DNA from: Mobula hypostoma
Lineage: Eukaryota
DNA: 64,000 nt
Direction: 5' to 3'
Assembly: GCF_963921235.1 (NCBI RefSeq)
Contig: NC_086107.1
Location: forward strand, 100,256,001-100,320,000
Shown: positions 11,672 through 57,880 of the stretch, one piece after another
How positions within the stretch are numbered: position 1 is the stretch's first letter
How the letters are laid out: the number at the start of each line of letters is the position of its first letter
Program-made: the position numbers and the translations under genes
The notes under the pieces: generated by a model
Databases searched by the model: none
Seen by the model: only the letters and a program-made list of their open reading frames with translations
What the model was told of the DNA's origin: nothing

Positions 11672-11805
11672 ACACAGGAGATTCTGCAGATGCTGGAAAT
11701 CTCGAGCAACACACACACACAATACTGGAGGAATCGGCAAGTCAGGCAGCTCCTATGGAGAGGAGTAAGCAATTGATATTTTGAGCCAAGACCCTAATCA
11801 GAACA
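11672..11805 (-). repeat. Penelope terminal-repeat-derived short element (degraded)
   Basis: cacaggagattctgcagatgctggaaatc...caggcagc resembles the termini of the Penelope-like elements at 5089 and 24603. Confidence 0.65.
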
Positions 11806-12205
11806 CTGCCATTCCTTTGCCAGCTCTTCCAACCTGTCCAAATCCTTTTGCAGATTACCTGTCTCCCTAACACTACCTGAATCTCCACTTGTCTTTGTAT
11901 TGTCTGCAAACTTGACCACAATGACATCATTAGACAATTAACATATAAAGTGAAAAGTTGTGGTCCCAACACTGACCCATGTGGAACTCCACTAGCTACT
12001 GGCAGCCATCCTGAAAAGACCCCCCCCCCATCCCCACTCTCTATCTTCTGCAGTCAGACAATCTTTTATCCATGCCCTTGCCTCTAACACCAAGGGTCTT
12101 ATTGAGTAGTCTCTTATGCAGAACCTTCCCAACAACCTTCTGAAAATCCATGTAAGTAACTTCCACAAGCTCTCCTTTATCTAACCTGTGTGTTACCTCC
12201 TCAAA
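11806..12205 (-). mobile_element. Degraded CR1 RT fragment
   Basis: Remnants FEEVT..LDKGELVEVTYMDFQK and LGPQLFTLYVN. Confidence 0.8.
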
Positions 12206-13629: not shown

Positions 13630-13860
13630 GCAGCTGTTTTCATAAATTCAGAAAACCTCAAGGTGCTACACCAAACAAAGTTATTTTGATAAGAGGTTAC
13701 TGAGTTTCTATTGTAATATAGGTATAACAACCTGATAACCTGTTTTAGTGATCTGGTCTGAGGAATATTGATTAGGGTATCAGAATGATCTCTGCCTCCT
13801 TTCTTCAAAATAGGGCAAAAAGAGCCTCATACATCCATCTGAGAGAATAGACAATCTAAC
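13630..13860 (-). mobile_element. Ancient Deu-domain SINE relic (AmnSINE1/SacSINE1-like)
   Basis: Minus strand GGATGTA...CTATTTTGAAGAA...AATATTCCTCAGACC...ATCACTAAAACAGGTTATC resembles the recalled Deu-domain consensus; heavily diverged. Confidence 0.5.
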
Positions 13861-14245
13861 TCTTCTTCCAAAAGATGAGACAATTCGTTCCAACCTAACT
13901 TTTTCCACTTGTGTCTCTGCATTGGGAAGTGAAGTACAGAGACAAAAGTGTTACATTCTGACACCTCTTGCATCCTGAAAGGGTAACTACAGTGTCTTTG
14001 GGAATCCAGGCTTGTTTTCCACTTCAAGACTTACACAGGTTTCCATCCTGCTGTCCTAATTGAGCTTCTAGATTCTTAGCTGCTGACCTTGACCTGCTGA
14101 GTTCCTCCAGCATTTTGTGTCTGTTGCTCTGGACTCCAGCATCTGCAGAATCGCTTGTGCTTGGCTGCCAGAAGATAACGCTGACATTCATTGTACATAT
14201 AAATACATTCAGCACTCTTCAGACATTCTATTTTAGTCAGGTATT

Positions 14246-14640
14246 GGGAAGTGGCGGGCTGAAAATACGACTCCCAAGGGAGGTGTAAGGTGTTCCTTCC
14301 TTCCACAAGACTGCAGGTCACCCTTGGGCAAGGTGTAGCACCTGCTTAGCATCCCTCCCCAAACCCCCCAGCACCGCCCCCCCCCCCGCCGATCAGGGTC
14401 ACATGAAGCCATGGGACCAGGTGGTACAGATCACAAGTCCTGGTTATGCAACCACAGATGCCAGGCAGAGGATCTCTAAGGAGAATTGATAATGGCTGGG
14501 GTCACCCGTCTTGTAAAAACAATGCCTAGAAGAAGGCAATGGGAATCCACTCTGTAGAAGAATTTGCCAAGAACAATCATGATCATGGAAAGCCCATGAT
14601 CACCCACATCATACGATACCGCACATAACAAATGAGCGGA
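14246..14640 (+). mobile_element. RTE-tailed SINE-like repeat, copy 1
   Basis: Colinear with 19674-20045 (ggaggtgtaagg...gtcacccttgggcaa...gaagaaggcaatgg...ggaaag.ccatgat); BovB/RTE-like tail. Confidence 0.75.
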
Positions 14641-14907
14641 CAATTAGGTAGCAACATCATTAAACATTTCTTTTTTTTTGTTTTGAACTGGAGAAAATTT
14701 ATGAATAATCAAATACCTGTTAATCTATATGAATGACCTCAGAACATACCCTATCACAGTAGATAATCCTTGTGATCTTATTAAAGTAGACCAAAATATG
14801 CCTTTTAGGCAGTACCTTGGGATCGAAGATGATTGGCTTCCACTCTGGTTCTGTGGGTTCTCTGGTGACGTGTGATGCCATTGCAAGAACCACCGACGTT
14901 TCCACAG

Positions 14908-15218
14908 ATGCCTTGTTCTCATTGTTACCATCAGGAAGGAGGTACAGGAGCCTGAAGGCACTCAATCAATGATACACGAACAGCTTCTTCCCCTCAGCCT
15001 TCCGATTTCTGAATGGACATAGAACACATGAACACTACCTCACTACTTTTTCATTTTTATTTTCGCATTAGTTATTTAACTTAACTATTTTATATATATG
15101 TATACTTACTGCGATTCATGTTTTTTTCTATTATTATGTATTGCCTTGTACTTCTGCCGCAAAGACAAGAAATTTCACGACATATACTGGTGATATTAAA
15201 CCTGATTCTGATTCTGAT
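14908..15218 (+). mobile_element. Rex1/L2-like LINE 3' fragment
   Basis: LFSLLPSGRRYRSL-type C-terminus and (ctgatt)n tail. Confidence 0.7.
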
Positions 15219-15971
15219 AGGGCAGCAGGTGCCTGAAATCTGGCATTTTCTGCCTTTGTAAGTCTACTATTTTAGAGTGCTTCTCCTCTTACAAAACAAA
15301 GTACTTATAGATCAGACACAGTGGATTTGGGGCAAAAATGGAATTACCATATATCAGCATGTTCTGTTTTTCTGTTTCAGTTTCCAGCATTTACAGTTTT
15401 TTTTTGCTCCAGGTATTAGATTCAGACATGAATAAGGAGACAGAATTACAATCTAACATTAAAAGAACATCTTGTAAATAACAAACAGAATTTGAAGTGG
15501 ATGGGGTAACCACAAATAAGGCTTAAGGTTCAGTAAGGCGACTCTTGAGAGATGAAAAGTAAACTTAGCTGATTTGTTACTGGGTAAAAAAAAATAGAAG
15601 GAGATAATACACAATCAAGACACTTCTTTAAAAGGCAAAGGCATCTCTTACCCCAATGAGCAACTCAGTCAACAAATGAGGCAAGAGATAAGTTTAATAA
15701 GTTTCTATAAAACTTGGAAATCATGTGCACTGGAATGCAATAGATAGCAACAGAACACTCAAAAGAAGATTGTAAAAGAAAGTACTCTGTACAAAAATAA
15801 CTTGGAAGAAATATCATAGCTAACAGTGATTTTTTAAAATAAATTTATTATGTTATATCTTAACATGGGTACCACGGAAACCCAAATACACTACTGATTA
15901 CCCTTTGTCCACTCTGTTGGACCTTCAAAGAACTGTAGCAAATTTGTCAATATGTCTCTTTCATAAAACTA

Positions 15972-17600
15972 CAGGTTTCCCCCGCCATCCGAAGGTACAG
16001 CGTTCCTATGAAACGGTTCGTAAGCTGGAACGTCGTAAAGTGAAGAAGCAATTACCATTTATTTATATGGAAAAATTTGTGAGCGTTCGCAGACCCAAAA
16101 ACAACCTACCAAATCATGCCAAATAACACATAAAACCTAAAATAACAGTAACATATAGTAAAAGCAGGAATGATATGATAAATACACGGCCTATATAAAT
16201 TAGAAATACTTCTCTACAACGATTGCCTGCACTGTTCTCCGTAGCGAAAATCTCATGCAAGCGCCGTCGGCAGAAAATCTCACACAAGCGCTCTTGGGAA
16301 AAACACTCTCTCCAGTAACCTTCAGGCTATGAAGCTGCCAAATCATACCAAATAACACTTAAAAATACACAGCCGACATAAAGTAGAAATAATGTATGTA
16401 CAGTGTAGTGTCACTTACGGGAATCAGGAAGACATGGAGCATACTGATGATGGTGTGTTAGGTTGAGTCGTTGCAGGTTTGGGTGGTGCAGTGGCCCCCA
16501 CCCTCCGGGCAGCAAACCGATACCAATCCGCGAAGAATGCAGTGGCGCAGCGGTGACCGGGACACATCCAGTACATCTTTAAGAAAAAAGCCGAAATAAA
16601 CATGCTAATTAATTAGGTCCCGCCCAGCACGTAATTGTCGCCCAGATCAGAGGCTGCATCGCCTCTGATCTGAGCCGACATTTACATGCCGGGCGGCACC
16701 TAATTAATTAGGATGTTTATTTCGGCTTTTTTCTTAAAGATGTGTTGTGTGCCTCCTGGCTACCGCTGCATTCTCCACGAATCAGTATCTGTCCAGGGCC
16801 TGGGGGTTAGGGTGGTGGGACACTGGGGTGTCATCTCATCGTCGTCTGTTTCCATTAAGGCAGGCAGGTCATCTTCTTCTATGACGGCCCGCCTCGATGT
16901 CAAGGGTCAAGGTTCATCATCTGCTGTGGCTGATGTGGAAGGCTTGTTTGACTGCTGAGCCTCGTGCATTTTTCTATCATAGAGTTCTTTGTAAGCACTC
17001 AAACCATCCTGCAAATATGCCCTAAACCGACATACCCTTTCAAAATTAAAGTCGTACTTTATCATTGCAGCGAAAATCTCACGTAGTTGTGTCAGATTCA
17101 GCTCCTGGACAACTTCACCTTCGGTCCATTTGCTACTGTATTTGGTTTCGATTGTTATCCTTTCCTCTTGCAATTGCATCAGCTCTTCATCTATCAGTTC
17201 TTGGTCTTGAGATGCCAAAACTTCTTCAACATCATCTTCGTCAACTTCCACAAGCCAAACTCACTTCGTCTTTCCTTCGTTCACCACGATCGAAGTGCTT
17301 AATTATGTCTAGTTTTACGCTAAGTGTAACACCCTTACAAGTTCTTTTAGGCTTTTCCGATACCTTAGTACTCATCTTGCTAACGGCTGCTCACAGGCAC
17401 GTGTTTAAGCAATGCCAGCGAGAATGCAGTTCCGAATCCGGGGGAAAGTGGCTGCTCGGGGCGCGCGCTGCTTTTTCCGCGTGCTGCCTTTTTTCGTAAC
17501 AGTGAAAACACCTTCTGTTAGCGAAAACAGGGAACTAATGTAGGTCTTTCGTAACAGTGAGGTTTCGTAAAGCGAACGTTCGAAAAGCGGGGGACACCTG
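15972..17600 (-). mobile_element. Tigger/pogo-like non-autonomous DNA transposon, complete, internally deleted transposase
   Basis: TA on both sides; imperfect TIRs CAGGTTTCCCCCGCCATCCGAA / CAGGTGTCCCCCGCTTTTCGAA. Minus-strand remnants KGVTLSVKLDIIK.FDRGE (CENP-B-type HTH) and EVDEDDVEEVLASQDQELIDEEL; no DDE core seen. Confidence 0.88.
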
Positions 17601-18089
17601 TACATGGACTGTACTTGAATATCCTGCTATTTCCTAAAAGGTTCTGCTGTTATATTATTAATCACTTCTGGGGTAGTCATTGGATCCTCTCAAGTTACAA
17701 GGAAGGTTGGTGGGTTAATTGAAATGTTTGGGCCTATATTGTGTTTAATATTTCAATTACCTGCAAAGTAATAAATACAAAAAGACATTCATTTGATGAA
17801 TAACTTCCAGTATCTGGAAGAGGATATTCATTGGCCCTCCCATGCAAAATCAGGAATGTCAGCTTGTTTAATAGATTTTTTGCAGCTGATGACTGTTGTA
17901 ATACCAAGAGATTGTTCCCAGATAATACCTTATTACTGAAGTTTAAACAAAAGTTAAAAGTTCACAAAATGAACGTGATTGTATGAATTAAAAGAACTGG
18001 AAATCTGAAAATGAAAACAAAAACAATGAGAAATACACAGCAGAAATTGTCTAAAGAGAACAAAATTAACTTATCAGTTTTGAGCTTCT

Positions 18090-19290
18090 TCATAGAACAT
18101 AGAAATCTACAGCATATTACAGGCCCTTTGGCCCACAATGTTGTGCCAACCATGTAACCTACTCTAGAAACTGCCTAGAGTTACCCTATTGCATAGCCCT
18201 CTATTTTTCTAAGCTCCATGTACTTATCTAAGAGTCTCTTGACCCTATTGTATCCAACTCCACCACCGTCACCAGCAGTACATTCCATGCACCCATCACT
18301 CTCTGTGTGAAAAACTTATCCCTGACATCTCCTCTGTACCTACTTCTAAGAAACTTAAAAATATGCCCCATGTTAGCCATTTCAGCCCTGGGAAAAAGCC
18401 TTTGGCTATTCACATAATCAATGCCACTCATCATCTTATACACCTCTAATCCTCCAATGCTCTAAGGAGAAAAGGCCAAGTTCACTCAACCTATTCTCAT
18501 AAGGTATGCTCTCCAATCCAGATAACATCCTTGTAAATCACCTCTGCACTCTCTCTACAGTAACCATATGCTTTCTGTAGTGAGGTGACCAGAACTGAAC
18601 ACAGTGATCCAAGTGGGGTTTGACCAAGGTCTTATACAGTATAGCTGTAACATTACCTCATGGCTCTTGAACTCAGTCCTATGGTTGATGAATGCCAACA
18701 CACCATGTGCCTTCCTAACAACACTGTCAACCTGCGGAGCAGCTTTGAGTGTCCTATGGACATGGACCCCAAGATCCCTCTGATCCTCCACACTGCCAAG
18801 AATCTTGCCAGAATATTTGAAGATATTCTGTCTTCAAATTTGACCTGCCAAAATTAACCACTTAGTACTTATCTGGGTTGAACTCCATCTGCCACATCTC
18901 AGCCCAGTTCTGCATCCTATCAATGTCCTACAATAACCTCTGACAATCCTCCAGACGATCCACAAGAGCCCCAACCTTTGTGTCATCAGCAAACTTACTA
19001 ACCCATCCTTCTACTTCTTCATCCAGGTCATTTATAGAAATCACAAAAAGGAGGGGTCCCAGAATAGATCCCTGCGGAACATCACTGGTCACCGACCTCC
19101 AGGTAGGATACAAGAAAAAATAAACATCTATAACCATCCTTTGCCTTCTGTAGGCAAGCGAATTCTGGATCCACAAAGCAAGGTCTCCTTGGATCCCATG
19201 TCTCCTTACTTTCTGAATGAGCCTTGCATGGGGAGCCTCACTGAAATCCATATACTGTGCACTACATCCATTGCTCTACCTTCATCACGT
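18090..19290 (-). mobile_element. CR1 LINE 3' fragment
   Basis: ORF pieces VPQGSILGPLLFV, KFADDTKVG, QRDLGVHVH, LFPRAEMAN; ttctatg tail. Confidence 0.88.
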
Positions 19291-19673
19291 GATGTTTACT
19301 CGGCTCTGCACTGAACTGAGGCTGAGGCTATGGCCTGCTCTGTGCTTCAGGTCTGTGGACTCACTCTTGCTCTGAATGCTATTTGCTTACTTTTATTGTT
19401 TACTACATATGTTTTCTTTTCTTTCCCTCTGCACTTTGGGTGTTTGAAGGTCTTCTTTTTTAATGGGTTCTTTTGGGTTTCTTTGTTTTGTGGCTGCCTG
19501 TAAAGAGACAAACCTCAAGGTTGTACAATATGTACATACTTTGAGAGTAAATGTACTTTGAACAGTTTTACTTATGACAATAGAACACCAAATGGCCATC
19601 TTAGCTCATCAAACACATCGACCTCTCACCTTTTTTTTGAATCAACGATTCATCAATTTTGGGTGGTGGGGTG

Positions 19674-22112: not shown

Positions 22113-23847
22113 AAAAAGAAATAATAATGGGGAAGAAGGAGATGGTAGATAAACTAAAGGAGTATTTTGCATTAGTCTTCACTGTGGAAGACACTAGCAG
22201 TGTACCAGATGTTGAAAGGTGTGAGGGAAGAGCAGTGGGTGCAGTTACTACTTTAAGGTGTCAAAAAGCTGAAAGACCTAAGGGTACATAAATCACCTGG
22301 ACCAAATGAACTGCACCCTAGGGTTCTGAAAGAGGTAGCAGCAGAGCCTGTGGAGGCATAAGAAATTATCTTTCAAAACTCAATGGACTCCGGCATGGTG
22401 CCAGAGGACTGGAAAACTCCACTCTTTAAGAAAGGAGGAAGGGAACAGAAAGGAAATTACAGACTAATTAACCTGACCTCAGTGGTTGGGAAGATGTTGT
22501 AGTCAATTGTTAAGGATGAGGTTATGGAATACTTGGTGTCACAGGACAAGATAGGACAAAGTCAGCATGATTTTCTTAAGGGAAAATCTTGCCTGAAGAA
22601 CCTGTTGGAATTCTTTGAGGAGATTACAAGTAGGGTAGATAAAGGGGATGCAGAGGATGTTGTACATTTGGACTTTCAGAAGGCCTTTGACAAGGTGCCA
22701 CACATGAGGCTGCTTACCAAGTTAAGACCCCATGGTATTATAGGAAAGTTACTAACATGGTTAGAGCATTGGCTGATTGGTAGGAAGCAGCAAGTGGGAA
22801 TGAAAGGATCCTTTTCTTGTTGGCTGCCAGTGACTAGTGGTGTTCCGCAGGGGTCGGTGTTGGGATTGCTTCTTTTTATGCTGTATATCAATGATTTACA
22901 TGATGGTATAGATGGCTTTGTTGACAGGTTTACAGATAATACAAAGATTGGTGGAGGGATAGGTAGGGTTGAGGTATGCTGCAGAAGGATTTAGACAGAT
23001 TAGGAGAATAGCAAGAAAGTGGCAAATGGAACACAACGTTGTAAAATACATGGTCATGCCCTTTGGTAGTAGAAATAGATGTGTAGACTATTTTCTAAAT
23101 GGGGGAAAAAATCCAAAAACCTGTGATGCAAAGACACTTGGGAGTCCTTGTGCAGAACACCCTGAAGATTAATGAAGGTTGAGTCAGTGGTGAGGAAGGC
23201 AAAAGTGATGCTAGCATTCATTTCAAGAGGTCTAGAATACATGAGCAAGGATGTGATGCTGAGGTTTTGTAAGGCACTGGTGAGGCCTCACCTTCAGTAT
23301 TGTGAATAGTTTTGGGCTCCTCATCTAAGAAAAGACATATTGGCATTGGAGAGAGATCAGAGGAGGTTCACAAAGGTGATTCCACGAATGAAAGGGTTAT
23401 TATACAAGGAACATTTGATGGCTCTGGGTTTGCATTCGCTGGGATTTAGAAGGATGAAAATGGATCTCATTGAAACTTTTTGAATGTTGAAAGGCCTAGA
23501 CAGGGTAGATGTGGAAAGGATGTTTCCCATGCTGGGGGAGTCTAGGACAAGAGGGCACAGCCTCAGGATAGAGGGGCGTCCATTTAAAACAGAGATGCAG
23601 AGAAATTTGTTCAGCAGAGGGTGGTGAATTTATGGAATTTTGTTACCACAGGTAGCTGTGGAAGCCAGATCATTGGGATTATTAAGGCAGAGTTGATAGG
23701 TTCTTCATTGGACATGGCATCAAAAGTTACGGGGAGAAGGCCAGTGAGCGGGGCTGAGGAGAGGAAAAAAAGGATCAGTCACGGTTGAATGGTGGAGCAA
23801 ACTCAGGGGACCAAATGGCCTAATTCTGCTCCTATGTCTTATGGTCT
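22113..23847 (+). mobile_element. CR1 LINE, 5'-truncated
   Basis: ORF 22524-22994 LDFQKAFDKVPH..SGVPQGSVLG; tail tcctatgtcttatggtct. Confidence 0.92.
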
Positions 23848-23852
23848 AATTA

Positions 23853-24602: not shown

Positions 24603-26740
24603 GCAGACAAGAGAAAGTCTGCTGTAAATTCAACCAACACTCACAAAATGCTGGGGGAGCTCAGCAGGCCAGGCAGCATCCATGGAAATGAGTAGAGTCA
24701 ATATTTTGGCCGAGACCCTTCATCAGGACTGGAGAAAAAAAATGATGAGGAGTCAGAGTAAGAAGGTGGGGTGGAAGAAACACAAGGAGATAGGTGAAAC
24801 TGGGAGGGGGAGGGGTGAAATAAAGAGCTGGATAGTTGATTGGTGAAAGAGATACAGGGCTGGAGAAGGGGGACCTAGGAGAGGACAGAAGGCCATGGAA
24901 GAAAGAAAAGGAGGTGGAGCACCAGAGGGAGGCGATTGGCAGGTAAGGAGATAAGGTGAGAGAACGAAATGGTTATGAAGAATGGTGAACGTGGGTGGAG
25001 GCATTACCAGAAGTTCGAGAAATTGATGTTCGTGCCATCAGGTTGGAGGCTACCCAGATGGACTATAATGTGTTGCTCCTCCAACCTGAATGTGGCCTCA
25101 TCGTGACAGTAGAGGAGGCCATGGACTGACATGTCGGAATGGGAAGTGGAATTAAAATAGGTAGCCACTGGGAGATCCTGCTTTTTCTGGCGGATGGAAC
25201 ATAGGCGCTCGGTGAAACAGTCTCCCAATCTACGTCGGGTCTCACCAATATACAGGAGGCTACACTGGGAGCATCGGATACAATAGATGACCCCAACAGA
25301 TTCACAGGTGAAGCGTCACCTCACCTGGAAGGGTTGTTTGGGGCCCTGAATGGTAGTGAGGGAGGAGGTGTAGGGGCAGGTGTAGCACTTGTTCCACTTG
25401 CAAGGATAAGGGCCGGGAGGGAGATCAGTGGGGAGGGACGAATGGCCAAGGGAGTCACATAGGGAACGATCCCTGTGGAAAGCAGAAATTCAGGGGAGGG
25501 AAAGACGTGCTTGGTAGTGGGATCCCGTGGGAGATGGCAGAAGTTAAGGAGAATTATATGCTGGACACGGAGGATAGTGTGGTGGTATGTGATGATAAGA
25601 GGAACCCTATCTCTGATGGTGTGACGGGAGGATGTGGTGAATGCAGACGTGCACGAAATGGAAGAGATACGGCTGAGGGCAGTGTTGATGGTGGACGAAG
25701 GGAAGCCCCTTTCTTAAAGAAGTACATCTCCTTTCTTTCTGGAATGAAAAGCCGCATCCTGAGAGCAGATGTATTGGAGACGGAGGAATTGAGAGAAGGG
25801 GATGGCATTTTTTCAAGTAACAGGGTGGGAAGATGTATAGCCCAGGTAGCTGTGAGAGTCCATGGGTTTATAATAGACATCAGTAGATAAGCTGTCTCTG
25901 GAGATAGAGACAGAGAGCTTGAGAAAGAGGAGGGAGGTGTCAGTAATGGACCAAGTAAATTTGAGGGCGGGGTGGAAGCTGGAGGCAATATTGATGAAGT
26001 CGATGAGCTCTGCAAGGGTGCAGGAAGCAGCACCAATGCAGTCATCGATGTAGCGTAGGAAAAATGGAAGACGGTCACCAGTGTAGGCTTGGAACATAGA
26101 CCGTCCCATGTAGCTGACAAAAAGGCAGGCGTAGCTGGGAACCATGCGAGTACCCGTAGCTACATCTTTTGTTTGAAGAAAGTGAGAGCAGCCAAAGGAG
26201 AAATTATTGAGAGTGAGGACAAGTTCCAGTAGACGGAGGAGAGTGGTGGTGGAGGGGAACTGGTTGGGTCTGGTGTTAAGAAAGAAACAGAAAGCTTTCA
26301 GGCCTTCCTGGTGAGGGATGGAGGTGTAAAGGGACTGGACATCCATAGTGAAAATAAGATGATCGGGGCCAGGGAACTGGAAGTTATTGAAAAGATGAAG
26401 AACATGTGAAGTGTCATGGATGTAGGTAGGAAGAGACTGAACCAGGGAGGATAAAACCGAGTGGAGGTTATGCAGATATGAGTTCAGTGGGGCAGGAACA
26501 AGTAGAAACAATGGGTCTACCTGGACAGGCAGGTTTGTGGATCTTGGGTAGGAGGTAGAAACGGGAGGTGTGGGATGAGGGAACTATGAGATTGGTGACA
26601 GTGGATGGGAGATCCCCAGAGTCAATAAGTACGGAGATGGTGTGGGAAACAATGGCCTGGTGCTCCTTAGTGGGATCCTGTTTGAGGGGTAAGTAAGAGG
26701 AAGTGTTTGACAGTTGTTGCTGGGCTTCAGAAAGGTAGAG
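24603..26740 (-). mobile_element. Penelope-like retroelement (RT and GIY-YIG), degraded
   Basis: ORF 25813-26511 FTMDVQSLYTSIP, GTRMVPSYACLFV, RYIDDC. GIY-YIG tail 25004-25350 is homologous to 5482-5808, with the same terminal repeat. Confidence 0.92.
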
Positions 26741-29882: not shown

Positions 29883-29980
29883 CCGGAAGTGAACGGCCGC
29901 AGAGCTGCGAGATGATTGGCTGGAGACAGCTCCGGTCACCTATATAATAACGTCACTTCCTCCATTAGGCCTCTTTACCG
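29883..29980 (+). promoter_or_regulatory. RPSA: RPSA core promoter: ETS/GABP site, inverted CCAAT, TATA box, TCT (5'TOP) initiator
   Basis: CCGGAAGTG 29883-29891; ATTGG 29915-29919; TATATAA 29941-29947; CTCTTT at 29971, 30 nt after the TATA start, as in ribosomal protein genes. Confidence 0.85.
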
Positions 29981-30007
29981 CCAGGCCTCCACACGGCGTT
30001 ACACGGA
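29971..30007 (+). other. RPSA: RPSA non-coding exon 1 (predicted)
   Basis: Begins at the TCT motif and ends at donor GA|GTGAGT (30008). Confidence 0.75.
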
Positions 30008-31078
30008 GTGAGTGTGTGCGAACGTATTCGTTTTTCCTCAGCACATATAAATCCTTCATTGACCCGCTAATTAGGATTTAAAACGCGCATAATGACGTAA
30101 AGGCCCGATGCTAACATCAGTGATCAAAATAAATTGTGGGGTGTGCCGGACGGGTAGGCCGCAGGCTTTGGCGCTGCCTGGTGGGTTCCGGCCGAGGCCC
30201 TGCCGTCGGGTGCTCCTGGAGCTGAGTCTGTTTCCTCGAGGCCTTGGCCGGACAGGATTCAGGACGTGATGACTTCGCTTTTGGGTTCGGGGTTACTGAT
30301 GGCCTATCCCCGGGGCCTCGGTAACACGTGAACCGAACGTAGTATCAGTGTCGGCTGGTTCATCGCTCGTCAGCGTGTGGTGGTGGGCCACTCGCCAAAG
30401 CCTTTACCACTGTGCGACTAGGAGTACCAGGACTTCGGTCTTGTAACACACAATACTGCAGCAAAAAAACAGTACTGGGAAGAAATGAGTTGGTTAGGCC
30501 TAATTTTTTTTTACATTGAAGTTCAAGGTTTAGACTCGAAAAGTTTAGTTAAAACAGGGAGAAGGCGAACGTGCTTGTTTTCAGACACAGTGGTGTAGAA
30601 AGGACAGAGGGAACATATTTGGGGTAGATTGGGTTAACGTGGCAATTAATATGCTGTATTGTCTGCACTGATTGACAAATAGTGATTGGAGCTGTTTAGT
30701 GCCTGCTGCTCTCCACCTCGATGATTTTGGGTTAGGGATGTGTTGTCAAAACAAGTCTAAACTGCCCTGTGGCCTACAGAGTCTGCTCCTGCCTCTGGAA
30801 AATGTGAAGACTTCTGATTACGTTCGCGATTAGGGTTGAGCCTGGGGCTGGGAGGCAGTGGGTCTGTTTTGGCTGCATTAGTTTGGATGGTTCAGTTGGA
30901 AAAAATTCATAGCTTGGGCTGGTGGTTGTCACTTGCAAGATACATATTCTTTAATTGGAGTATGACATCTAGTTTTAACAGCAAATGCTTAACTAATTTT
31001 GCAAGTATAAGGAAAAATATGTCTTGATAGTTTGTAAACACTCAATATCATATATATGCATATTGATATAGAGGCACA

Positions 31079-32152: not shown

Positions 32153-32409
32153 TAGACTCAGTCAAAAGGGGGGGAGGGGGGAAATAGGCTGAAACCATTG
32201 CATAGTTGCCAACATGTAGAATTATTGTCAATTTACATAATAGAATGTAAAAGCACCATTTCACAGACATTTTGGGGGGAAAATATCTAATTTTTGCCCT
32301 CCTGAAGCTATAATCTGTTTATATGTTGAGATGGTGTCTGTGTTTCAGTGCTGTAATATCCTAGAAATGTCCATATAACCTAATTTTTGGTGGTGTGTCT
32401 CTCAGTCAC

Positions 32410-32564
32410 TGCACATCCTTAAAACTCAGTGCCAAGGTCAGTTTCTGGCCAATTAACTCTTGAGTGTCGGAGATGTGCTACAGTAAAAGTGGCAGGTATT
32501 TCGCTAACACCACAAGAGTCTCTGGCTCGATGAGTGGGGTTTGATAGTGTTTCCTGTCACAAGG
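32410..32564 (+). ncRNA. SNORA6: H/ACA snoRNA, SNORA6/SNORA62 (E2) family, copy 1 (SNORA6-like), intron 2
   Basis: TGCACAT...ATGTGCT 5' stem, H box ACAGTA 32480-32485, TTTCGCTAACACC..GGTTTGATAGT 3' hairpin, ACA 32559-32561. RPSA is the known host gene. Confidence 0.9.
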
Positions 32565-34078: not shown

Positions 34079-34137
34079 GTGTGTGGCTCAGACGATTTTT
34101 CCCTCAGCTGTGTTTGAACGGAGGTCTTTTCTAGGAC

Positions 34138-34293
34138 TGCACATTTTTATAGCTTAGGAGGTAAAGCCATTACTTGGCTCATGAACTCCTAAGTGTCGGA
34201 GATGTGCTACAATAACCTGGCAGGTTTTCGCTGACACCTCGAGGGTCCGTGTGGCTCGATGAGTGGGGTTTGATAGTAAATCTTGTCACAATT
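34138..34293 (+). ncRNA. H/ACA snoRNA, SNORA6/SNORA62 family, copy 2, intron 3
   Basis: TGCACAT...ATGTGCT stem, H box ACAATA 34209-34214, ACA 34288-34290; paralogous to copy 1. Confidence 0.9.
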
Positions 34294-35628: not shown

Positions 35629-35891
35629 TGGAGGCAGGTCTGTCTTGTATTTTTAAACGTGACTTTGGTATTGTAGGCCCATTATTTATAGGTCATAGGA
35701 TGCACTATAATATTTTGAGTATGACATCACTAAACGTTAAGGCAAAAGTGGAAAGCAGCAAGTTACTGGAGTTTTGAGGAACTGACGTGTTCTACGGTAC
35801 CTTGCCACCTAATAGCTTAACAGCCTCTAGAAGGATTTGGAGTTAGAGGGAGGTAGCATTTTAGATTGTCCCCAGTTTCAGGTGGCAGGTT

Positions 35892-36039
35892 TGCACATTG
35901 TTAGAACTCGGAGGTGAGACCATTGTGGTCGATGAACTCCGAGTGTAGGAGATGTGCTACATGATCATGCAGGTGCCTTTAACACTGCTCGAGCCTGTGG
36001 CTCAGTGAGTAAGGTTTTGTAGTAACCCCTGCTACAATG
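35892..36039 (+). ncRNA. SNORA62: H/ACA snoRNA, SNORA62 (E2)-like, copy 3, intron 4
   Basis: TGCACATTGTTAGA...GATGAACTC..AGTGTAGG..TGTGCTACATGA matches recalled E2. H box ACATGA 35959-35964; ACA 36034-36036. Confidence 0.88.
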
Positions 36040-36762: not shown

Positions 36763-36939
<177 letters not shown>

Positions 36940-37499
36940 TAACAGTTTGATTAAATGGCAGGGATTGCTACCTGTTTGGAGTTTTTGTCAGGCCTGCGTC
37001 GCTCAGCACACAGATCCTTAGCCACATGTGAATGTTTGCTCATATTCGGTAAGCAAGAAGATTCATTACTCCCCAGTGACAACTCCCTACAAAGTCAGTT
37101 CTGGGCCAGATAGTGTGCCATGTTTCCCTTACCTGTAGTGTTGTTGCTCAAAGTTGTCTGGATGGGTACAGTTGTAATACTCAAAACGCAACACTTTTCC
37201 AGGACAGCAAGCTTCTTGGGCATCTTACCTATCACTTGATCATTTCCTCCTTCCACCACTAGTGAGGCTGTGGTGCATCATTCAGTTACTAAACCGGACT
37301 ACCAATAGCCCAAGAATGACAAGGATAGTAAGCCCCTGACTTGGGCATATGCCTGTTCCTTCGTTTCCAGTTACAAATCCTAGAACACTCCCTCCAACAG
37401 GACCTTCAGGAAAACTAGCAGCTCTAGGGGCTACTTCCTTGTGCAGGACAGTTGGGCATGGGCAATAAAGCCTTTCCTTGCCAGTGAGGTCCACATCTT

Positions 37500-39463
37500 T
37501 TCTTTTAATATAATTTTTTATTGAGTTTTCAAGTGATACATGAGAAAAAAATATCTACCCTCCCCCCCCCCGATATATACTCCTACCTAAAAAGAAAAGA
37601 AAAAAAACAAAAAGAAAAGGAACCGCCTGAACATTGGAAGGTTTGCACATGCTCCATGGGATAAAAATTAATTTAATATATATTTGTTCCTTTCCCCCAA
37701 GGAACCCAGATCTTCATCATCGGAGCTATAAATAAGGGCTCCAAATATTCCAAAATGTTACATATTTATCTCTTAAAATCTAAAACATTATTTAGCTTCT
37801 CAACTCTCATAGTTCCCTGGGGAATCTCTTTGAACTTCACCATGTTGCTATGTGTTTCCCTCCCAATCATCCAGGCAAAAAGAAAAAAAAGATAGATAAG
37901 ATACAAAAAAAGAAAAAACAAAATACCCCCTCCCCACTAATGTTGTGAATGAAAAGATACACAACACTACCCCCCCTCCATTGTGCGGGTCGTGGCTATT
38001 GCCACGCTTGCACACATGAATAATGTAACGATTGGTCAGTGTTTCTTCCAGCTCCCCTGTAACAAAAAATTATATATATAGAAAAAAATTAATGTTGTTA
38101 TTCCCAGCTAATATTCCTCAAATTTTAACCTTTCTTCCCCTCCCTCATATAATTAATAATATATTTATATATTCACCCGCCTAAAAATTCAACAGGCCTA
38201 TCTCACTCCCCTAAGTTTGTTCTTGTATCTGGTGAATATTCAAAGAATCTCGCACAAACTCCTCCGCTTTCCGGTAATCGTCAAAAAATCTTTTTTCTCC
38301 ACCAGGCAAGAAAATCTTCAAGGTTGCAGGATAACGCAATATAAATTGATAACCGTGATCCCATAGGGCTTTTTTCACTGGATTAAACTTCTTCCTTCTT
38401 TTCAAAAGTTCATAACTTATGTCAGGGTAGAAAAATATTTTCTTCCCTTCTATCATCAGTGGCCCTTTTCTCTTCTTGGCAGCTTGGGCAGCCGCCTGTA
38501 GAATCCTTTCTTTGTCTTGAAATCTTAAGAATTTTATTAAAATTGATCGTGGATATTGGTCATCTTGTGGTTTTGGTCTTAGAGCTCTATGTACCCGCTC
38601 AATTTCAATTGATCGGTCTTCCTCTTTCATTTGCAAGGTTTTCGGGATCCATCTTTGAAAAAATTCTATTGGATTATCTCCCTCTATACCTTTAAGACCA
38701 ACAATTTTAATATTATTATGTCTACTAAAATTTTCCAACACGTCCACTTTTTCCAAGAGTCGATTTCTTTCCGTGTTCCAGACAAGCACGTCATTTCTGT
38801 TTTTTCCACTCTATCGTTAATATGCTCGATTGTTCTTTCCATCTTCTGAAGTTTCTTATCCATTTTATCCTTTTTTTTTATAGCTCTATCATAGCACATC
38901 TTCACGCCTCTAAGCTCTGTTCTTAATTTTCTTAATTCAGCTGTTAACTGCAATAAAGCCTCTCTTATGTCTCCATCGTCTCCTTTTCTTCCAGTCTCTT
39001 CCAGTTCTTCCTCCTCCTCTTCATCTGTATTCTCTGCGATATCCAATTCTGACTCTGAGTCACTTTCAGTTGCAGTGGCCGTCGGTTCTTGTAGTTTAAA
39101 TTGTGTCGATTTGTGCATGCGCAATTCCGGCATCATCTTCCGAGAGACTGCTACTGCCGCTGTTGCACCCTGTTCTTCTACACCAGAGATAAAATGCGTC
39201 TCCTCTGCAGGAGATCCAACCTGAATCCGAGGCTCCATCGCTGCACTAGGCCCTTTTTTCTTCCCATCTCGCGGCGACTTCACAACAACAGACTTCTTCT
39301 GTTGCAGTTTACGAGGCATATCGTAGAGTAGTCTTACGAAGCTTATAAGTGGTTTTCAGAAAGTATTTATTAACTTTACTCTGTTTAAACGGTACTTTGC
39401 TGATTTTTTTACGGGAGAGCTGGATTTACACGTCTCAATCCTACGTCATCATGTGACGCCCCC
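37500..39463 (-). mobile_element. L1-clade element with ORF1 and both ends but ORF2 almost entirely deleted; 15-bp TSD
   Basis: TSD TGAGGTCCACATCTT at 37485-37499 and 39464-39478. 5' end GGGGGCGTCACATGATGACG; 3' end AATAAA plus A-rich tail. Total 1964 bp. Confidence 0.9.
38211..39319 (-). pseudogene. L1 ORF1p (coiled coil, RRM, CTD) with one frameshift near 38790
   Basis: ORFs 38684-39319 and 38211-38789 carry LENFSRHNNIKIVGL, IERVHR, PRSILIKFLRFQDKERIL, IFFYPDIS and LRYPATL, all L1 ORF1/Transposase_22 motifs. Confidence 0.9.
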
Positions 39464-39509
39464 TGAGGTCCACATCTTGAAAAATAATCTATTTGGATTT
39501 CTCATAACT

Positions 39510-39712
39510 TAGGTGTCTGTACATTCTCCTGGTGACTGGATTTCTTCCGGTGCTCCAGTTTCCTCCCACAGTCCAAAGACATACTGGTTGGTAGGTTAAT
39601 TGGTATTTGTAAATTGCCCCGTGATTAGGCTTGGACTAAATCGGGGGATTGCTGGGCGTCGTGGCTCAGAAGGCCAGGAGGACGTATTCTGTGCTCAATC
39701 TCAATCATAAAT
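39510..39712 (+). mobile_element. V-SINE (HE1-like) fragment
   Basis: V domain ccggtgctccagtttcctcccacagtccaaagac. Confidence 0.8.
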
Positions 39713-40191
39713 TGTTGCTATTCTAAAAATATTCATCAGTATCCTTCCCTCTTCTGTCCCTCATTGAAGCAAAGCTAAAATACGTGGCCAGTATAAATTT
39801 GGATTTGGACTGTTTCAGTGGTTGGATGCCTTATCAGTCATAACCAATGAAGTCCATATCAGCATCTGACTTCAGTAAATAGTATGTTGGTTAATTTGCT
39901 ATGTTACTGGCTTAGTTGTGCTGCTGTAATGTGGATTACATACACTTGCATTGTTGGATGTGACCTGTATCCAGCATCCAAAGGGCTGCACTGCTGAAAA
40001 GTTTGCTCAGCGCTAGGTCAATCCGTTAAGAGTAGAGTGGCAGGCTCAGGGTTTGCCCATCACTGATGTATCCCACCATGTTTCATGGTCTTGCTAGCTG
40101 GGTGCCATGGTATACACATTTCTAGGCTTAGTGTTTGGACAACCTGAATAACCCTGACCCATTCTTGTTCTGTTTGACCTATGTCTGATAG

Positions 40192-40357
40192 ATTGAGAAG
40201 GAGGAGCAGGCTGCTGCCGAGAAGGCTGCTGGTAAGGAGGAGTACCAAGGGGAATGGACTGCTCCAGTTGCAGAGTTCGTTCAGCCGGAAGTTACCGACT
40301 GGTCTGAGGGCGTGCAGGTACCTTCTGTGCCAATCCAGCAGTTCTCTGCTGCAACTG
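40192..40357 (+). CDS. RPSA: RPSA exon 6 (166-nt form; an alternative donor at 40436 extends it to 40435)
   Basis: [25 protein letters not shown]...[20 protein letters not shown]; donors G|GTAAAA (40358) and A|GTGAGT (40436), both phase 1. Confidence 0.92.
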
Positions 40358-42149: not shown

Positions 42150-42395
42150 AGCTTGTTAGTGTAATGGTTAGCAGAATGCTTTACAGTACCAGCAACCGGG
42201 GTTCAATTCCTGACACTGCCTGTAAGGAGTGTACATTCTTTCTCCCTGTGACCGCATGGATTTTCTCCCACTGTCAAAAGACCAACTGGTTAGTAGGTTA
42301 ATTGGTAATTGTAAATTGTCCAGTGATTAGGCCAGGGTTAAATTGGGGGTTGTGGGGCAGCATAGCTATTCTGTGCTGTTACCCCAATAAATAGA
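42150..42395 (+). mobile_element. tRNA-derived V-SINE
   Basis: A box tagtgtaatggtt, B box ggttcaattcc; body shared with the 39510 and 56508 copies. Confidence 0.8.
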
Positions 42396-44485: not shown

Positions 44486-45929
44486 CAGGTGTCCCCTGCT
44501 TTTCGAACGTTCACTTTACGAAACCTCACTGTTACGAAAGACCTACATTAGTACCCTGTTTTCGCTTTCAGAAGGTGTTTTCACAAAAAAAAAGCAGCGT
44601 GCAATAAAAGGCAGTGCGCACTCCGAGCAGCCGCTCCCCCCGATTCGGAACGGTATTGCTTAAACACGAGCCTGTGAGCAGCGTTTGCAAGATGAGTTCT
44701 ATGGTATCGGAAAAGCCTGAAAGAACTCGTAAGGGTGTTACACTTAGTGTAAAACTAGACATAATTAAGTGTTTTGATTGTGGTGAACGAAGTAAGGACC
44801 ACGTGAGTTTGGCTTGTGGAAGTTGATGAACATGATGTTGAAGAGGTTTTGGCATCCCATGACCAAGAACTGATAGATGAAGAGCTGATGCAATTGGAAG
44901 AAAAAAGCATAACAATCGAGTAATGATAAAATATGACTTTAATTTTGAAAGGGTACATCGGTTTAGGGGATATTTGCAAGATGGTTTGAGTCCTTACAAA
45001 GAACTGTATGATAGAAAAATGTGCAAGGCTCAGCAGTCAAGCAAGCCTTCCACATCAGCCACAGCAGACAACCAAACTCGACCTTCGACATTGAGGCGAG
45101 AGTCATAGAAGATGAGCTGCCAGCTCTAATGGAAACAGACGATGACGAGATGACCCACCACCCCAACCCCCAGGCCACAGACAGATACCGATTTGCGGAG
45201 AATGCAACGGTAGCCGGGAGGGGAGGCACACAGCATATCTTTAAGAAAAAAAGTCCAAAATAAACATGCTAATTAATTACGTGTCGGGCGGCACCTAATT
45301 AATTAGCTTGTTTATTTCTGCTTTTTTCTTAAATATGTGCTGTGTGCCTCCCGGCTACCACTGCATTCCTGCGTGCTTCGCGGCAATATATCGCTGGGTG
45401 ACCTGGAGGGTGGGGGCCACTGCACCAGCCAACTTGCGACGACTCAGTCTAACACATCATCATCAGTGTGCTCAGCGCTGTCTTCCCAATTCCGGTAAGT
45501 GATACGACACTGTACGTACATTATTTCTACTTTATATCGGCTGTGTATTTTTACATGTTATTTGGTATGATTTGGCAGGTTCATAGCTTAAAGGTCACTG
45601 GAGGGAGTGTTTTTGCCAACAGCGCTTGCGTGAGATTTTCTGCCGACTGCGCTTGCGTGAGATTTTCGCTACAGAGAACAGTTCAGTAATGATTGTGGAA
45701 AAGTATTTCTACTTTATATAGGCTGTGTATTTATCATATCATTCCTGCTTTTACTATATGTTACTGTTATTTTAGGTTTTATGTGTTATTTAGCATGATT
45801 TGGTAGGTTATTTTTGGGTCTGCGAACGCTCACAAAATTTTCCCATATAAATAAATGGTGATTGCTTCTTCGCTTTACAAGATTTCGGCTTACGAACTGT
45901 TTCATAGGAACGCTCTACCTTCGGATGGC
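44486..45929 (+). mobile_element. Second copy of the Tigger-like element (inverted relative to 15972-17600), right TIR truncated
   Basis: Starts CAGGTGTCCCCTGCTTTTCGAA; colinear reverse complement of copy 1; ORF remnant RKGVTLSVKLDIIKCFD. Confidence 0.88.
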
Positions 45930-51500: not shown

Positions 51501-53054
51501 CGGACAGATTGGCCTGTCCAGCTCAAGCTTCGTTAGGTCCCATTTGTGAATCGACTCAGTAAAATATGTTCCCTTTCCCACAGTGCTCTGGGTCACAAGT
51601 TTTATAAACATAACGAAAGGAAAATGCCCTCAGTCATGTACCCAGCGAGAGACCTCCGAATGGAGGCAACTGGACCAATCAGGAGACTTCAATCCAACAC
51701 GTCCTGTGTCACTCCATTCCTAGAGGTCACTGTGATTTCCGCTGGACCTTTGAAGAGTCTCCCTGGTTTTGGTTGCCATCTGAACAGTAGAAGAAAACAC
51801 AAGTATTAACAGCAGTTTCCTACACAAGGTTAATTATTGATGTAATTTCATCATAATCTAAAGTAATAGACAAATTTTTCAGGAACAATGATGGTGCCAG
51901 ATCTATTGCGGCTCAGCTGATTCTGAAGGAGATTTCCAGTTAGTCCCATGGTCTTGCTCCTTTGCCACTGACCTGCATCGTCTCCCAATAGAGGCAACAT
52001 GGCCCCTTGATCATTACTGATCTACTTCAACCCTTTTTCCTCAATGTCTCTGTCCCTGCACTCATCTCCAGCAGATCCCTTGACCCCATCTCCAAAAGTC
52101 TTGCAATCTTGAAGAATTCTTCTCACCTAAGCAATTAATGGACAACTCCTGATTCTTAAAGGGTGATCCTGGACTCAACTACTTCCTTGCATCTACACAA
52201 TCAAACTCGAAGGATTTTGTACACCTCACTAGGATCATGAATATAATTACTCAGTCCCTCTTTATAGGCCATTCCTCTCATTGCAAGATAAAATTTAGTG
52301 AAACCCTGTTGCAGTCTCTGCAAGATACATCAATCTTTCAAATAAACGGACCAAAACTGCACCAATATAATAGCAGTGAGACTTCTTACTTTTATATTTG
52401 AATCACCCTGCAATAAGCTTGTGACATTTATCTCCATAGTCCCTTGTAGGTTGAGTTAGTGTATCTAGATTAAATATTAATTCAATTCTCTTTTCAATAC
52501 TTATAGTGAACCTGCTTCCACTACTTTGAGATGTGTCAGATTGTGACAAACTCAGTAAAACTCTAATCCTGCTTCAGTTTCTTTTGCTGATTTTATTGTT
52601 TTGTCCTCTGGTTTTGACCCTCCAGCCAATGGAATTTCATCAAAAGTCATGCTGTACAAAATAAAAATCCATCCTAATTTTAAGCACTGCTATGATACCT
52701 CTCTTTCTCCATTTTAAGGAATCAGAATTACTGTCATATATGATGTGAAATTTGTGGTTTTGCAGCTGTAGTATCATGCAAAAACATAAAATCACTATAG
52801 ATGACAACATTAAAAAGTACAAAAGGAACGATGAGGCAGTGTTCATGGGCTCATGGATCATTCAGGAATTTTGATGACAGAGGGGAAGAAGCAAATGACT
52901 GAACATGAATCAACCCAGCTGCAACAGTGGAGACACAAGTGTTTGTAGATGTTGGAAACTGGAGTAACACACAAAAAGCTGGAGGGACTGTTGATTCTCC
53001 ATTTCCCACCGTAAATACTGTATGACCTGTGGGTTGTTCCAGCTTTTTGCATGT

Positions 53055-54395
53055 TAGACCATTAGACAAAGGAACAGAATTAGGCCATTTGGCCCATTGA
53101 GTCTGCTCTGCCATTCAATCATAGTTAATCTTTTTTTCCCCTTGTCATCCCCACTCCCCAGCCTTCTCCCCGTAACCTTTGACCTCATGCCAATCAAGAA
53201 CCTATTAAGCTTTGGCTTAAATACACCCAATAACCTGGCCTCCACAGCTGCCCATGGTAATAAATTCCACAATTCCACCACCCTCTGACTAAAGAAATTT
53301 CTCCGCATCTTTGTTTTAAATTTATGCCCCCCTATCCTAAGGCTGTGCCCTCTTGTCCTAGACTCCCCCATCATTGGAAACCTCCTTTCTACGTCTACTC
53401 GGTCTAGGCCTTTCAACATTCAAAAGGTTTCAATGAGATTCCCCCTCATCCTTCTATCCAGTGAGTACAGGCCCAGAGCCATCATTAAGTTCCTCGTATG
53501 ATAACCCTTTCATTCCTGGAACATCCTTGTGAACCTCCTCTGAACCCTCTCCAATGCCAGCACATCTTTTCTTAGATAAGGAGCCCAAAACTGTTCACAA
53601 TACTCAAGGTGGGACCTCACCAGTGCCTTATTAAAGCCTCAGCATCATATCCCCGCTCATGTTTTCTAGGACTCTTGAAATGAATGCTAACGTTGTATCT
53701 GCCTTCCTCACCACCGACTCTACCTGCAAGTTAACCTTTAGGTTATTCTACACAAGGACTCCCAAGTCCGTTTGTATCTCAGATTTTTGGATTTTCTCCT
53801 CATTTGGAAAACAATCTGCACATTTATTTCTACAACCAAAGTGCATGACTGTGCATTTTCCAACATTGTATTTGATTTGCCTCTTTCTTGCCCATTCTCC
53901 TAATTTAAGTCCTTCTGCAGCCTGTTTCCTCAACACTACCTGCCCCTCCACCAATCTTAGTATCATCTGCAAACTTGGCAACAAAGCTATCTATTCCATC
54001 ATCTAAATCATTTATATACAGCATAAAAGGCAGTCTTTTTATAACATCAACCCTGCGGAACACCACTAGTCATTGGCAGCCAACCAGAAAAGGATCCTTT
54101 TATTCCTTCTTGATGCCTCCTACCAATCAGCCAATGCCCTAACCATGCCAGTAACTTCCCTGTAATACCGTGGGCTTTTAACTTGGTAAGCAGCCTCATG
54201 TGTGGCATCTTGTCAAAGGCCTTCTGAAGGTCCAAATATACAACATCCACTGCATCCCCTTCATCTATCCTACTTGCAATCTCCTTAAAGAATTCCAACA
54301 GGTTTGTCAGGCAAGATTTTCCCTTAAGGAAACCATGCTGACTTTGTCCTATCTTGTCCTGTGTCACCAAGTACTCCATAACCTCATCTTTAACA
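53055..54395 (-). mobile_element. CR1 LINE 3' fragment
   Basis: ORFs QHGFLKGKSCLTNLLEFF..YLDLQKAFDK..SGVPQG and ESRTRGHSLRI. Confidence 0.9.
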
Positions 54396-54544
54396 GATAT
54401 TGCCCTAGAAACATCTGTGTCCACACATTCCTTTCAGATACACAGCACAGAAAAAGGCTCATTAGCCTATTGAGTCTGTTCCGACCATCAACCACCCATT
54501 TAGATTAACCCTATATAAGTCCCATTTTTATCCTCTTCATGTTA

Positions 54545-56234: not shown

Positions 56235-57880
56235 CAGGTTGCTGTCACTGACTTCAGCTCAGCTTTTAGCACGATCATCCCTCAGAGGCTGGTGGGTAAA
56301 CTGTCCTTGTTGGGACCCAACACCTCTTTCTGTAACTGGACCTTGGACTTCTTGACAGCAAGACCCCAGTCAGTCCGAGTTGGGAGCAACATCTCAAGCT
56401 CCATCGTGCTGCACACTGCTGCCCTCGGGCTATGTGCTCAGTCCATTGCTGACTCACAACTGCATGGCCAGATTCAGCTCAAACCAGATCATCAAGTTCG
56501 CTGATGATTTATTTACTTATTGAGATACAGCATGGAATAGGCCCTTCTGGCCCTACGAGCCACACCGTCCAGCAACCCCCAATTTAACTCTAGCCTAATC
56601 ACAGGACAATTTGCAATGAGCAATTAACCTACTAACCGGTACGTCTTTGTACTGTGGAAGGAAACCGGAGCATCCAGAGAGGACAACGAGACTCCTTACA
56701 GATGACGCTGGAACTGAACTCCGACATTCCAAGCTGTAATGACGTTGCGCTAACCATGACGCTACCATGGCGCCCAACACTGATGACACAGCAGTGGTTG
56801 GCCTCATCGACAGCAGTGACCAGTCAGCATACAGAGAAGAGGTAGAAAGGCTTGTCAAATGGTGAGAGAACAACAATCTGAGTCTCAACGTAGACAAGAG
56901 ATGATTGTGGACTGCAGGAAGGTGCAGGTTGACTACCATGGAGAGAGTGAAGAGTGTCCACGATTTCATATACCTCTTTTGGATCCCTGAAGAAGGGTCT
57001 TGGCCCAGAACATGGATCGTTTATTCATTTCCACAGATGCTGCCTAACCCGCTGAGTTCTTCCAGCATTTTGTGTGAACTGCTTTGAATTTCCAGCATCT
57101 GCAGAATCTCATGACCCCACCAACCTCCTCTGTTTAAAGGGAATAATCTCAGTTTCTCCAGTCTACCTGTGCACCCTCCTCCTGTTCCTCTCTGGTAAAT
57201 CTCTTCCACAGCTCCTCTTTGGATGGTTGAGAGATATAATTTATTAGGAGTAAACATCATTAAAGCCTGTCCTGATCCAACCACACTGATGCCACAAGGA
57301 AAGCACACCAGTGCCTTTATTTCCTTAGGAGGCTAAAGAAATTTGGCATGTGCCATTTGACCCACACCACTTTTTATAGACGTACAACAAAAAGCATCCT
57401 ATCTAGATGCATCACGGTTGGTATGGCAACTGCTCTGCCTGAGACAAGAAACTCAGAGAGTTATGGACATCATGGAAATCAGTCTCCCCTCCTTGGATGA
57501 TGTCAACACTTCTCAGTGCCTTGATAAAGCAGCCAACATAATCAAAGACCCTACCTACCTGAGACATCCACACCCCTTCCCTTGGGCAGAAGATACAACA
57601 GCCTGCTTCTAACCCACTGTTGTAAGACTATTGAACGCACCTCTTCTGTGAAAAGGCGGATTCTTGATGTCATGATCTACCTCATCACAGCCTTGTACTT
57701 TATTGTCTGCCTGCCCTGTACCTTCTCTATAACTTTAACGCTATATTCCGCATTCTAATATTGCTTTCCCCTTGTAGTACCTCAATGCACTGATATAATG
57801 AAATGAACTGTACGGTTGGCATGCAAAACAATCTTTCATTGTATCTCAAACTTATGACAATAATAAATCAATTTACCAAT
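56235..57880 (+). mobile_element. Degraded Rex1/L2-like LINE with nested SINE and Penelope-terminus insertions
   Basis: [36 protein letters not shown] (split by the SINE), NNLSLNVDK; tail gacaataataaatc. Confidence 0.75.
56508..56779 (-). mobile_element. V-SINE with 7-bp TSD
   Basis: TSD CTGATGA at 56501-56507 and 56780-56786; tRNA-like head; V domain gctccggttttccttccacagtacaaagac; (aaat)n tail. Confidence 0.85.

Follow-up and report, generated by a model that had tools for sequence, protein, structure and literature searches.

An ORF1-only L1 element with intact ends in RPSA intron 5 of the ray Mobula hypostoma, a probable member of a HAL1-type family

The window analysed in this study is a 64-kb stretch of DNA of Mobula hypostoma, in which the RPSA gene harbours an L1 element with both of its ends and an ORF1, but with hardly any ORF2. 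The question raised by this locus is whether the element is a single copy that lost its ORF2, or whether it belongs to a family that multiplied in the shortened form, in the manner of the HAL1 (half-L1) elements of mammals that were reportedly described by Smit in 1999 and by Bao and Jurka in 2010. The features that bear on this question are the following (positions are those of the window).

36763..36891, plus strand: RPSA exon 5 of the host gene, upstream of the insertion, from the exon reconstruction
37485..37499, no strand: target-site duplication (TSD) on the 3' side of the element, a direct repeat
37500..37725, minus strand: 3' UTR of 226 nt, with poly-T and poly-G tracts, AATAAA at 37522 and an eroded A-rich end
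37726..37777, minus strand: ORF2 3' remnant of 52 nt, made up of 16 codons (LRDKYVTFWNIWSPYL) plus a stop codon; the ATG at 37810 lies in another frame
37777..37778, minus strand: deletion junction, at which nearly all of ORF2 is missing; loose ends in runs X4 and X10, bridged in runs X5 and X17
37778..37810, minus strand: 33 nt that begin with an ATG and stop at the junction, either the spacer end or the first ORF2 codons
37811..38210, minus strand: inter-ORF spacer of ~400 nt, with T-rich and G-rich tracts and unremarkable folding
38211..39319, minus strand: L1 ORF1 of 1,109 nt, with a basic and acidic N-terminal region, coiled coil, RRM and CTD
39320..39463, minus strand: 5' UTR of 144 nt, in which an internal Pol II promoter is presumed; its first 8 nt are identical to the frog L1 5' consensus GGGGGCGTGGCC
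39464..39478, no strand: TSD on the 5' side of the element, a direct repeat which with its flank gives the nick site TCTT/GA
40192..40357, plus strand: RPSA exon 6 of the host gene, downstream of the insertion, with a second in-frame donor at 40435

Public contigs of four runs were aligned to 37000-40000 at a likeness of 82. By guess, X4 (organism A, with flanks identical to the window) and X10 (organism B) are DNA runs and X5 (organism A) is an RNA run; X17 is from organism C.

The element measures 1,964 bp (37500-39463) and lies antisense on the minus strand. It is bracketed by an exact 15-bp direct repeat (37485-37499 and 39464-39478), which is the sole repeat of at least 10 bp between both end regions, and the rough chance probability of such a TSD over 100 x 100 position pairs is ~3e-5. 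The preliminary description had given this size, orientation and perfect duplication, and all three are confirmed. The marks of unit insertion by target-primed reverse transcription (TPRT) are present, namely the 15-bp TSD, the TCTT/GA site and AATAAA with an eroded A-rich 3' end. TCTT/GA is listed among the human L1-endonuclease or L1-mediated insertion sites in Table 1 of PMC4859970.

The host gene RPSA is intact: its six coding exons were joined to 295 codons with zero internal stops, and a non-coding, TOP-like first exon was located near 29970-30008. Three copies of SNORA62/SNORA6 were found on the plus strand, in RPSA introns 2, 3 and 4 (32408-32564, 34136-34293 and 35890-36039 respectively), and none was found in intron 5. 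The exon chain, the first exon at ~30008 and the snoRNAs in introns 2-4 place the element in intron 5, where it had previously been located. As far as seen, the single RPSA copy is inert and does no harm to the gene. Two in-frame GT donors are present for RPSA exon 6, at 40357 and 40435, so that the protein would have 295 or 321 residues. The stretch 39551-39712, directly beyond the 5' TSD, belongs to a short repeat of very high abundance (summed depth 625,079 in X4), further pieces of which lie at 42261-42358 and 56511-56672.

Within the 64-kb window, no further copy of the element and no L1 ORF2 piece was found. Other repeats in the window include a near-complete LINE on the minus strand (~7000-11230), with an esterase (GDSL) ORF1, an endonuclease and a reverse transcriptase (RT), broken by stops or shifts, which is presumably CR1-like; related pieces lie at 22500-23850 and 53050-54430. 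Two pieces on the minus strand (5087-6485 and 24629-26583) are Penelope-like, carry RT and GIY-YIG domains and are 75% alike. An inverted repeat pair, 82-87% alike, was found at 15984-17600 and 44486-45929, with palindromic stretches at 16547-16769 and 45200-45368.

The 5' end of the element reads GGGGGCGTCACATGATGACG at 39463. Its first 8 nt agree with the frog L1 5' consensus as given in section 9 of PMC5381506, and two X17 contigs end their match exactly at 39463 and then continue into other sequence, so that other insertions share the 5' start of the element. Both observations are in line with the intact 5' end claimed in the preliminary description. Also as described there, ORF1 comprises about 370 codons with one frameshift, and a spacer follows it, at 37811-38210. 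The shift between the two frames was placed near 38793, and the copy is one codon short near 38689. Two further claims stood in part. Of the ~85 nt that had been assigned to ORF2, the 52 nt from 37777 to 37726 are supported as the ORF2 3' end, and the 33 nt from 37810 to 37778 were unsupported as an ORF2 start; the 3' UTR was confirmed, and the A-tail reduces to AATAAA at 37522 and ~7 A-rich bases that merge into the TSD. From the ORF1 stop, 433 nt lead to the junction and 711 nt to the element end. Shuffled sequences fold as well as the spacer and the 3' part do (z -0.29 and 0.84), so a structured RNA signal is claimed for neither, and a 72-codon antisense frame that spans the junction matched no protein. 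With ORF2 down to a 52-nt end, the intact ORF2 with endonuclease and RT by which an autonomous L1 is recognised is lacking.

A profile of 16 ORF1 sequences (A3) matched human LINE-1 ORF1p structures over the coiled coil, RRM and CTD (E 2.7e-18), and this HMM match to solved ORF1p settles the family of the predicted protein as L1 ORF1p; single-sequence Pfam matches of the window ORF1 were weak and under the curated cut-off. The nearest named proteins are P0007 (154/175 and 50/53 identical) and P0001 (115/166 and 164/193), both of Mobula hypostoma. In a 30-row ORF1 tree, which included ray L1 ORF1s and no mammalian HAL1, the window ORF1 was sister to P0007 (100/96) and then to P0001 (100/100), within the ray L1 ORF1s. 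Six residues that are present in P0007 are missing from the window copy. A long basic and then acidic N-terminal region was observed at 38900-39319 (minus strand), and at ~370 codons in all the ray ORF1 is longer than those of zebrafish L1s and than the 320 aa of the Narcine L1 ORF1 model.

The ORF1 profile gave 12,320 matches against 1.84 billion representatives, and the ORF2 end motif was absent from all 172 proteins examined out of these. Searches of viral contigs with P0001 and of metagenome contigs with the ORF1 alignment A2 gave 13 and 598 pattern matches respectively, with zero confirmed in either. A 22-nt junction pattern had one match in metagenome contigs (L001), which has nothing else in common with the element and was rejected as chance.

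The frameshift-free base near 38793 was found in 61%, 49%, 98% and 100% of the depth in the four runs. As this extra base is present in 49-100% of the depth, the frameshift is not family-wide. Twenty-six ORF1 sites were near-fixed against the window copy, 10 of them synonymous and 16 replacing (from 28 ORF1 rows among the 40 listed of 464, with 2 polymorphic rows excluded). This split did not differ from neutral at a transition bias of 4-8 (p 0.19-0.39), and gave p 0.047 without bias. Among the same 26 listed sites, 5 of 6 were synonymous in the RRM-CTD half compared with 5 of 20 in the N-terminal half (Fisher p 0.018, post hoc). Such a contrast may reflect past constraint on the RNA-binding RRM-CTD half, which is not assignable to the ORF2-less lineage since parent and derivative are inseparable.

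Several ray gene models contain this type of ORF1. The RefSeq models P0001, P0004 and P0008, named as TADA1, ADAT1 and STXBP6 isoforms, are largely this L1 ORF1, and it seems that ORF1 exon capture, or annotation error, is common in rays. Three models, P0003 from Hemitrygon akajei and P0005 and P0006 from Hypanus sabinus, begin with a TRIM RING-B-box part, to which a complete and open L1 ORF1 is joined by splicing. These models form one 90% cluster over two stingray genera (161/168 and 345/364 identical), and might possibly represent a domesticated fusion or a young shared insertion. Sharks and stingrays are unmentioned in the available text of work on L1 ORF1-derived exons (PMC12129022).

The position of the deletion was read from contigs that match the 3' part of the element up to 37777 and then depart, two in X4 and three in X10. 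The letters of these loose ends are open in the frame leading into the 16 codons LRDKYVTFWNIWSPYL and the stop, and alone read RIPLEKITY; we take the 16-codon remnant and the loose end to resemble the end of a fish-type L1 ORF2. The loose ends behind 37777 place the junction at 37777/37778, and indicate that the short form coexists with ORF2-type elements whose 3' end is the same. These are likely candidates for its autonomous partner.

Evidence that the junction is shared came from one difference row, at 37791, a position covered by only two contigs in X5 and likewise two in X17. The "from_end" column of such rows was calibrated on 14 rows, of which none fell below the aligned-part prediction and eight contradict the whole-contig reading. 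As the column thus counts aligned letters, the X5 and X17 contigs must extend across the junction: in X5, one or both of the two contigs are aligned from 37735 to 37847, with 43 letters on the lower side of the junction and 70 on the upper, and in X17 one or both are aligned from 37759 to 37823, with 19 and 46 letters respectively. The base at 37791 differed from the window copy in all of the X5 and X17 depth, which was ~100 (X5) and ~8 (X17) times that of the RPSA-intron flank. These contigs indirectly support the ORF2-less structure in copies besides the one in RPSA, and the junction, whose uniqueness to this locus would have spoken against a family in the preliminary description, appears to occur elsewhere. 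In the DNA runs X4 and X10, the row at 37791 guarantees only 2-3 aligned letters beyond the junction, so that these runs neither show nor count junction copies.

One X17 contig jumps a joint at 37662-37735 and skips the 72-nt stretch 37663-37734 (among the 15 listed of 24 joints; joints at a likeness under 95 may stem from other repeats, and 82 was used here). The end of the X5 contig at 37735 coincides with this jump point, which suggests a second subfamily with a different 3' UTR stretch and the same junction. Over 37505-37706, the X5 and X17 depth drops 20- to 50-fold below ~37707, and the DNA runs continue. None of the runs that contain the sequence is recorded as RNA, and X5 is one by guess only, so no expression is claimed. 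A diverged 3' UTR would also produce such a drop, which probably reflects a subfamily whose 3' UTR differs over this stretch.

Summed contig depth inside the element was 4,024-19,597 in X4 (19 bins), compared to 11.3-14.3 in the unique flank, and 947-3,577 in X10, compared to 2.4-4.0; summed depth is not a copy number and is readable only as "hundreds or more". The depth was flat from 5' to 3', with a 3' UTR/ORF1 ratio of 0.64 in X4 and 0.49 in X10, a junction bin/ORF1 ratio of 1.09 and 1.29 respectively, and an ORF2-tail zone/ORF1 ratio of at most ~1.8. In the two anole L1 families reported in the available text of PMC3787681, 24 of 144 (17%) and 22 of 75 (29%) copies are full length, and the 3'/5' depth ratios expected from these shares are 6.0 and 3.4. 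The flat depth backs a family of short elements, but is supportive only, as the low-complexity 3' UTR tracts may depress the 3' depth and the full-length share in rays may differ from that in the anole. Both ends of the RPSA insertion are crossed by X10 contigs, so that the insertion is older than the split between organisms A and B.

The shared junction, the flat depth and the coexisting ORF2-bearing 3' ends are also predicted if the short form is a recurrent by-product of an autonomous L1, generated by splicing or by an RT jump at a preferred place, with each copy derived from a 6-kb parent and no self-propagating lineage among the copies. A precedent for this exists in the SpIREs, documented in the available text of PMC5860796 as dead ends of L1 RNA splicing, and an AG 6 nt inside the 3' remnant is a possible acceptor if the 5' side has the same bases. 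Splicing is nevertheless poorly matched by the sequence at the clip point, where the removed stretch lacks a terminal AG and the preceding bases are A-rich with no pyrimidine tract, and the SpIREs described in PMC5860796 remove the 5' UTR or the 5' UTR/ORF1, not ORF2. We consider this explanation unlikely.

It is more improbable still that a full-length 6-kb L1 lost its ORF2 once, during or after insertion into RPSA, and that the depth stems from ordinary autonomous copies. Internal deletion is a known decay route of L1 copies according to the available part of PMC5872511, both DNA runs give good support for ORF2-bearing relatives that share the 3' end, and no contig piece among the 32 listed of 64,304 extends across the junction. 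A single loss at RPSA is difficult to reconcile with the X5 and X17 bridging contigs, given their differing base at 37791 and their depth relative to the flank, and it would require more than half of the copies to be full length, against the 17% and 29% of the anole families. It also predicts a loose end on the 5' side of the junction as strong as that on the 3' side, and none was present among the 24 listed of 1,007 loose-end rows. Least probable is a small family or segmental duplication, with the deleted form at a handful of loci and the depth mostly due to autonomous copies: it would fit the mere two contigs per run over 37791 in X5 and X17 and the DNA runs that give no junction count, but the unique flanks to either side are single low-depth contigs in both X4 and X10, which puts the RPSA locus outside any duplicated block, and the flat depth from 5' to 3' is left unexplained.

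The element is thus probably a dead full-length copy of an amplified and independently evolved HAL1-type family of non-autonomous ray L1s, which would supply its own ORF1p and borrow ORF2p. An independent HAL1-like family in cartilaginous fish had been proposed in the preliminary description; the bridging contigs, the flat depth and the ORF2-type contigs with a shared 3' end make this proposal probable. The family would have originated by internal deletion of nearly all of ORF2 from a ray L1. A master copy would be transcribed from the internal promoter at its 5' end into a 2-kb RNA, which may yield its own ORF1p chaperone (coiled coil-RRM-CTD) and be coated by it, by analogy with human ORF1p. 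ORF2p would be provided in trans by the ORF2-bearing L1 whose 3' end is the same. Its endonuclease would nick TCTT/GA, and TPRT would then produce a duplication such as the 15-bp TSD seen here. The flat depth suggests that the short RNA is mostly copied to its 5' end, leaving most copies whole. The antisense insertion into RPSA intron 5 took place before the split of A and B, as its presence in both implies, and decay, seen in the frameshift, followed.

A more far-reaching and tentative possibility is that the ORF1-only form is the main 5'-complete product of its ray L1 lineage, that it outnumbers its autonomous parent, forms subfamilies that keep the junction and is still transcribed, with an ORF1 that is open and selected, and that it is the source of the terminal exons with a whole ORF1 in ray gene models, including the TRIM-ORF1 fusion of two stingray genera. 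If such a dominant short form were true, this would be the first non-mammalian HAL1 with a living partner alongside, and a test bed for the need for ORF1p in cis. The breakpoint is clean, the 3' end of the parent is kept and ORF2-bearing relatives coexist, so that parent and derivative are directly comparable; this comparison could address selection on ORF1, the share of full-length insertions and the cis need for ORF1p. An independent origin in cartilaginous fish would show the keeping of ORF1 with a borrowed ORF2p to be a route open to L1 parasites of jawed vertebrates in general, and no peculiarity of mammals.

We could not find a HAL1-type element described in cartilaginous fish, such elements having previously been described from mammals. 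The literature searched contained no report of an ORF1-only L1 outside mammals, sharks and rays included, and an elasmobranch entry in Repbase or Dfam, which lay outside the search, is possible. The available text of PMC5381506, PMC5203782, PMC5381603 and PMC5872511 does not mention HAL1, and in that of PMC4494074 the term appears only in the references. According to the available text of PMC5753468, HAL1 is an ORF1-only non-autonomous L1 derivative with several independent origins in mammals, and young HAL1 families are reported from marmoset and guinea pig in that of PMC3183009. As far as these sources and PMC5786205 describe it, mammalian HAL1 resembles the ray element in being L1-derived and non-autonomous and in encoding ORF1p only. 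The ray element differs in its cartilaginous fish host, with an ORF1 that nests among ray L1 ORF1s (in a tree without mammalian HAL1), in its fish-type short 5' UTR, its long spacer and the retained 3' end of its parent with 16 ORF2 codons, and in the occurrence of ORF2-bearing relatives with its 3' end in the same genomes.

HeT-A and Ag-Sponge have insect hosts and belong to other LINE clades than the ray element. In section 23 of PMC5786205, HeT-A (Jockey clade) and Ag-Sponge (CR1 clade) are given as bipartite non-autonomous LINEs in which ORF1 is present, and the available text proposes that the ORF1 proteins of bipartite LINEs multimerise with the proteins of their partner. On that description they are like the ray element, in which the 5' and 3' parts of a LINE are kept, ORF1 is retained and the RT would be borrowed. 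SpIREs, as far as PMC5860796 was available, share with it an internally shortened L1 and a recurring junction; they lose 5' UTR or ORF1 sequence at splice sites and are dead ends, whereas the ray element loses ORF2 and has no evident splice signal on the 3' side. In layout, the ray element resembles the autonomous L1 of fish and frog as described in the available sections of PMC5381506. The 5' UTR of 144 nt and the spacer of 400-433 nt compare with 113-267 and 311-730 nt in zebrafish, and the T-rich 3' UTR, the AATAAA and the frog-like 5' terminus are likewise of this kind. In contrast to zebrafish L1, in which ORF1 is 780-1,059 nt in that source, the ray ORF1 is longer (1,109 nt), and in contrast to the autonomous L1 of fish and frog, ORF2, otherwise of about 3.8 kb, is cut to 52 nt in the ray element.
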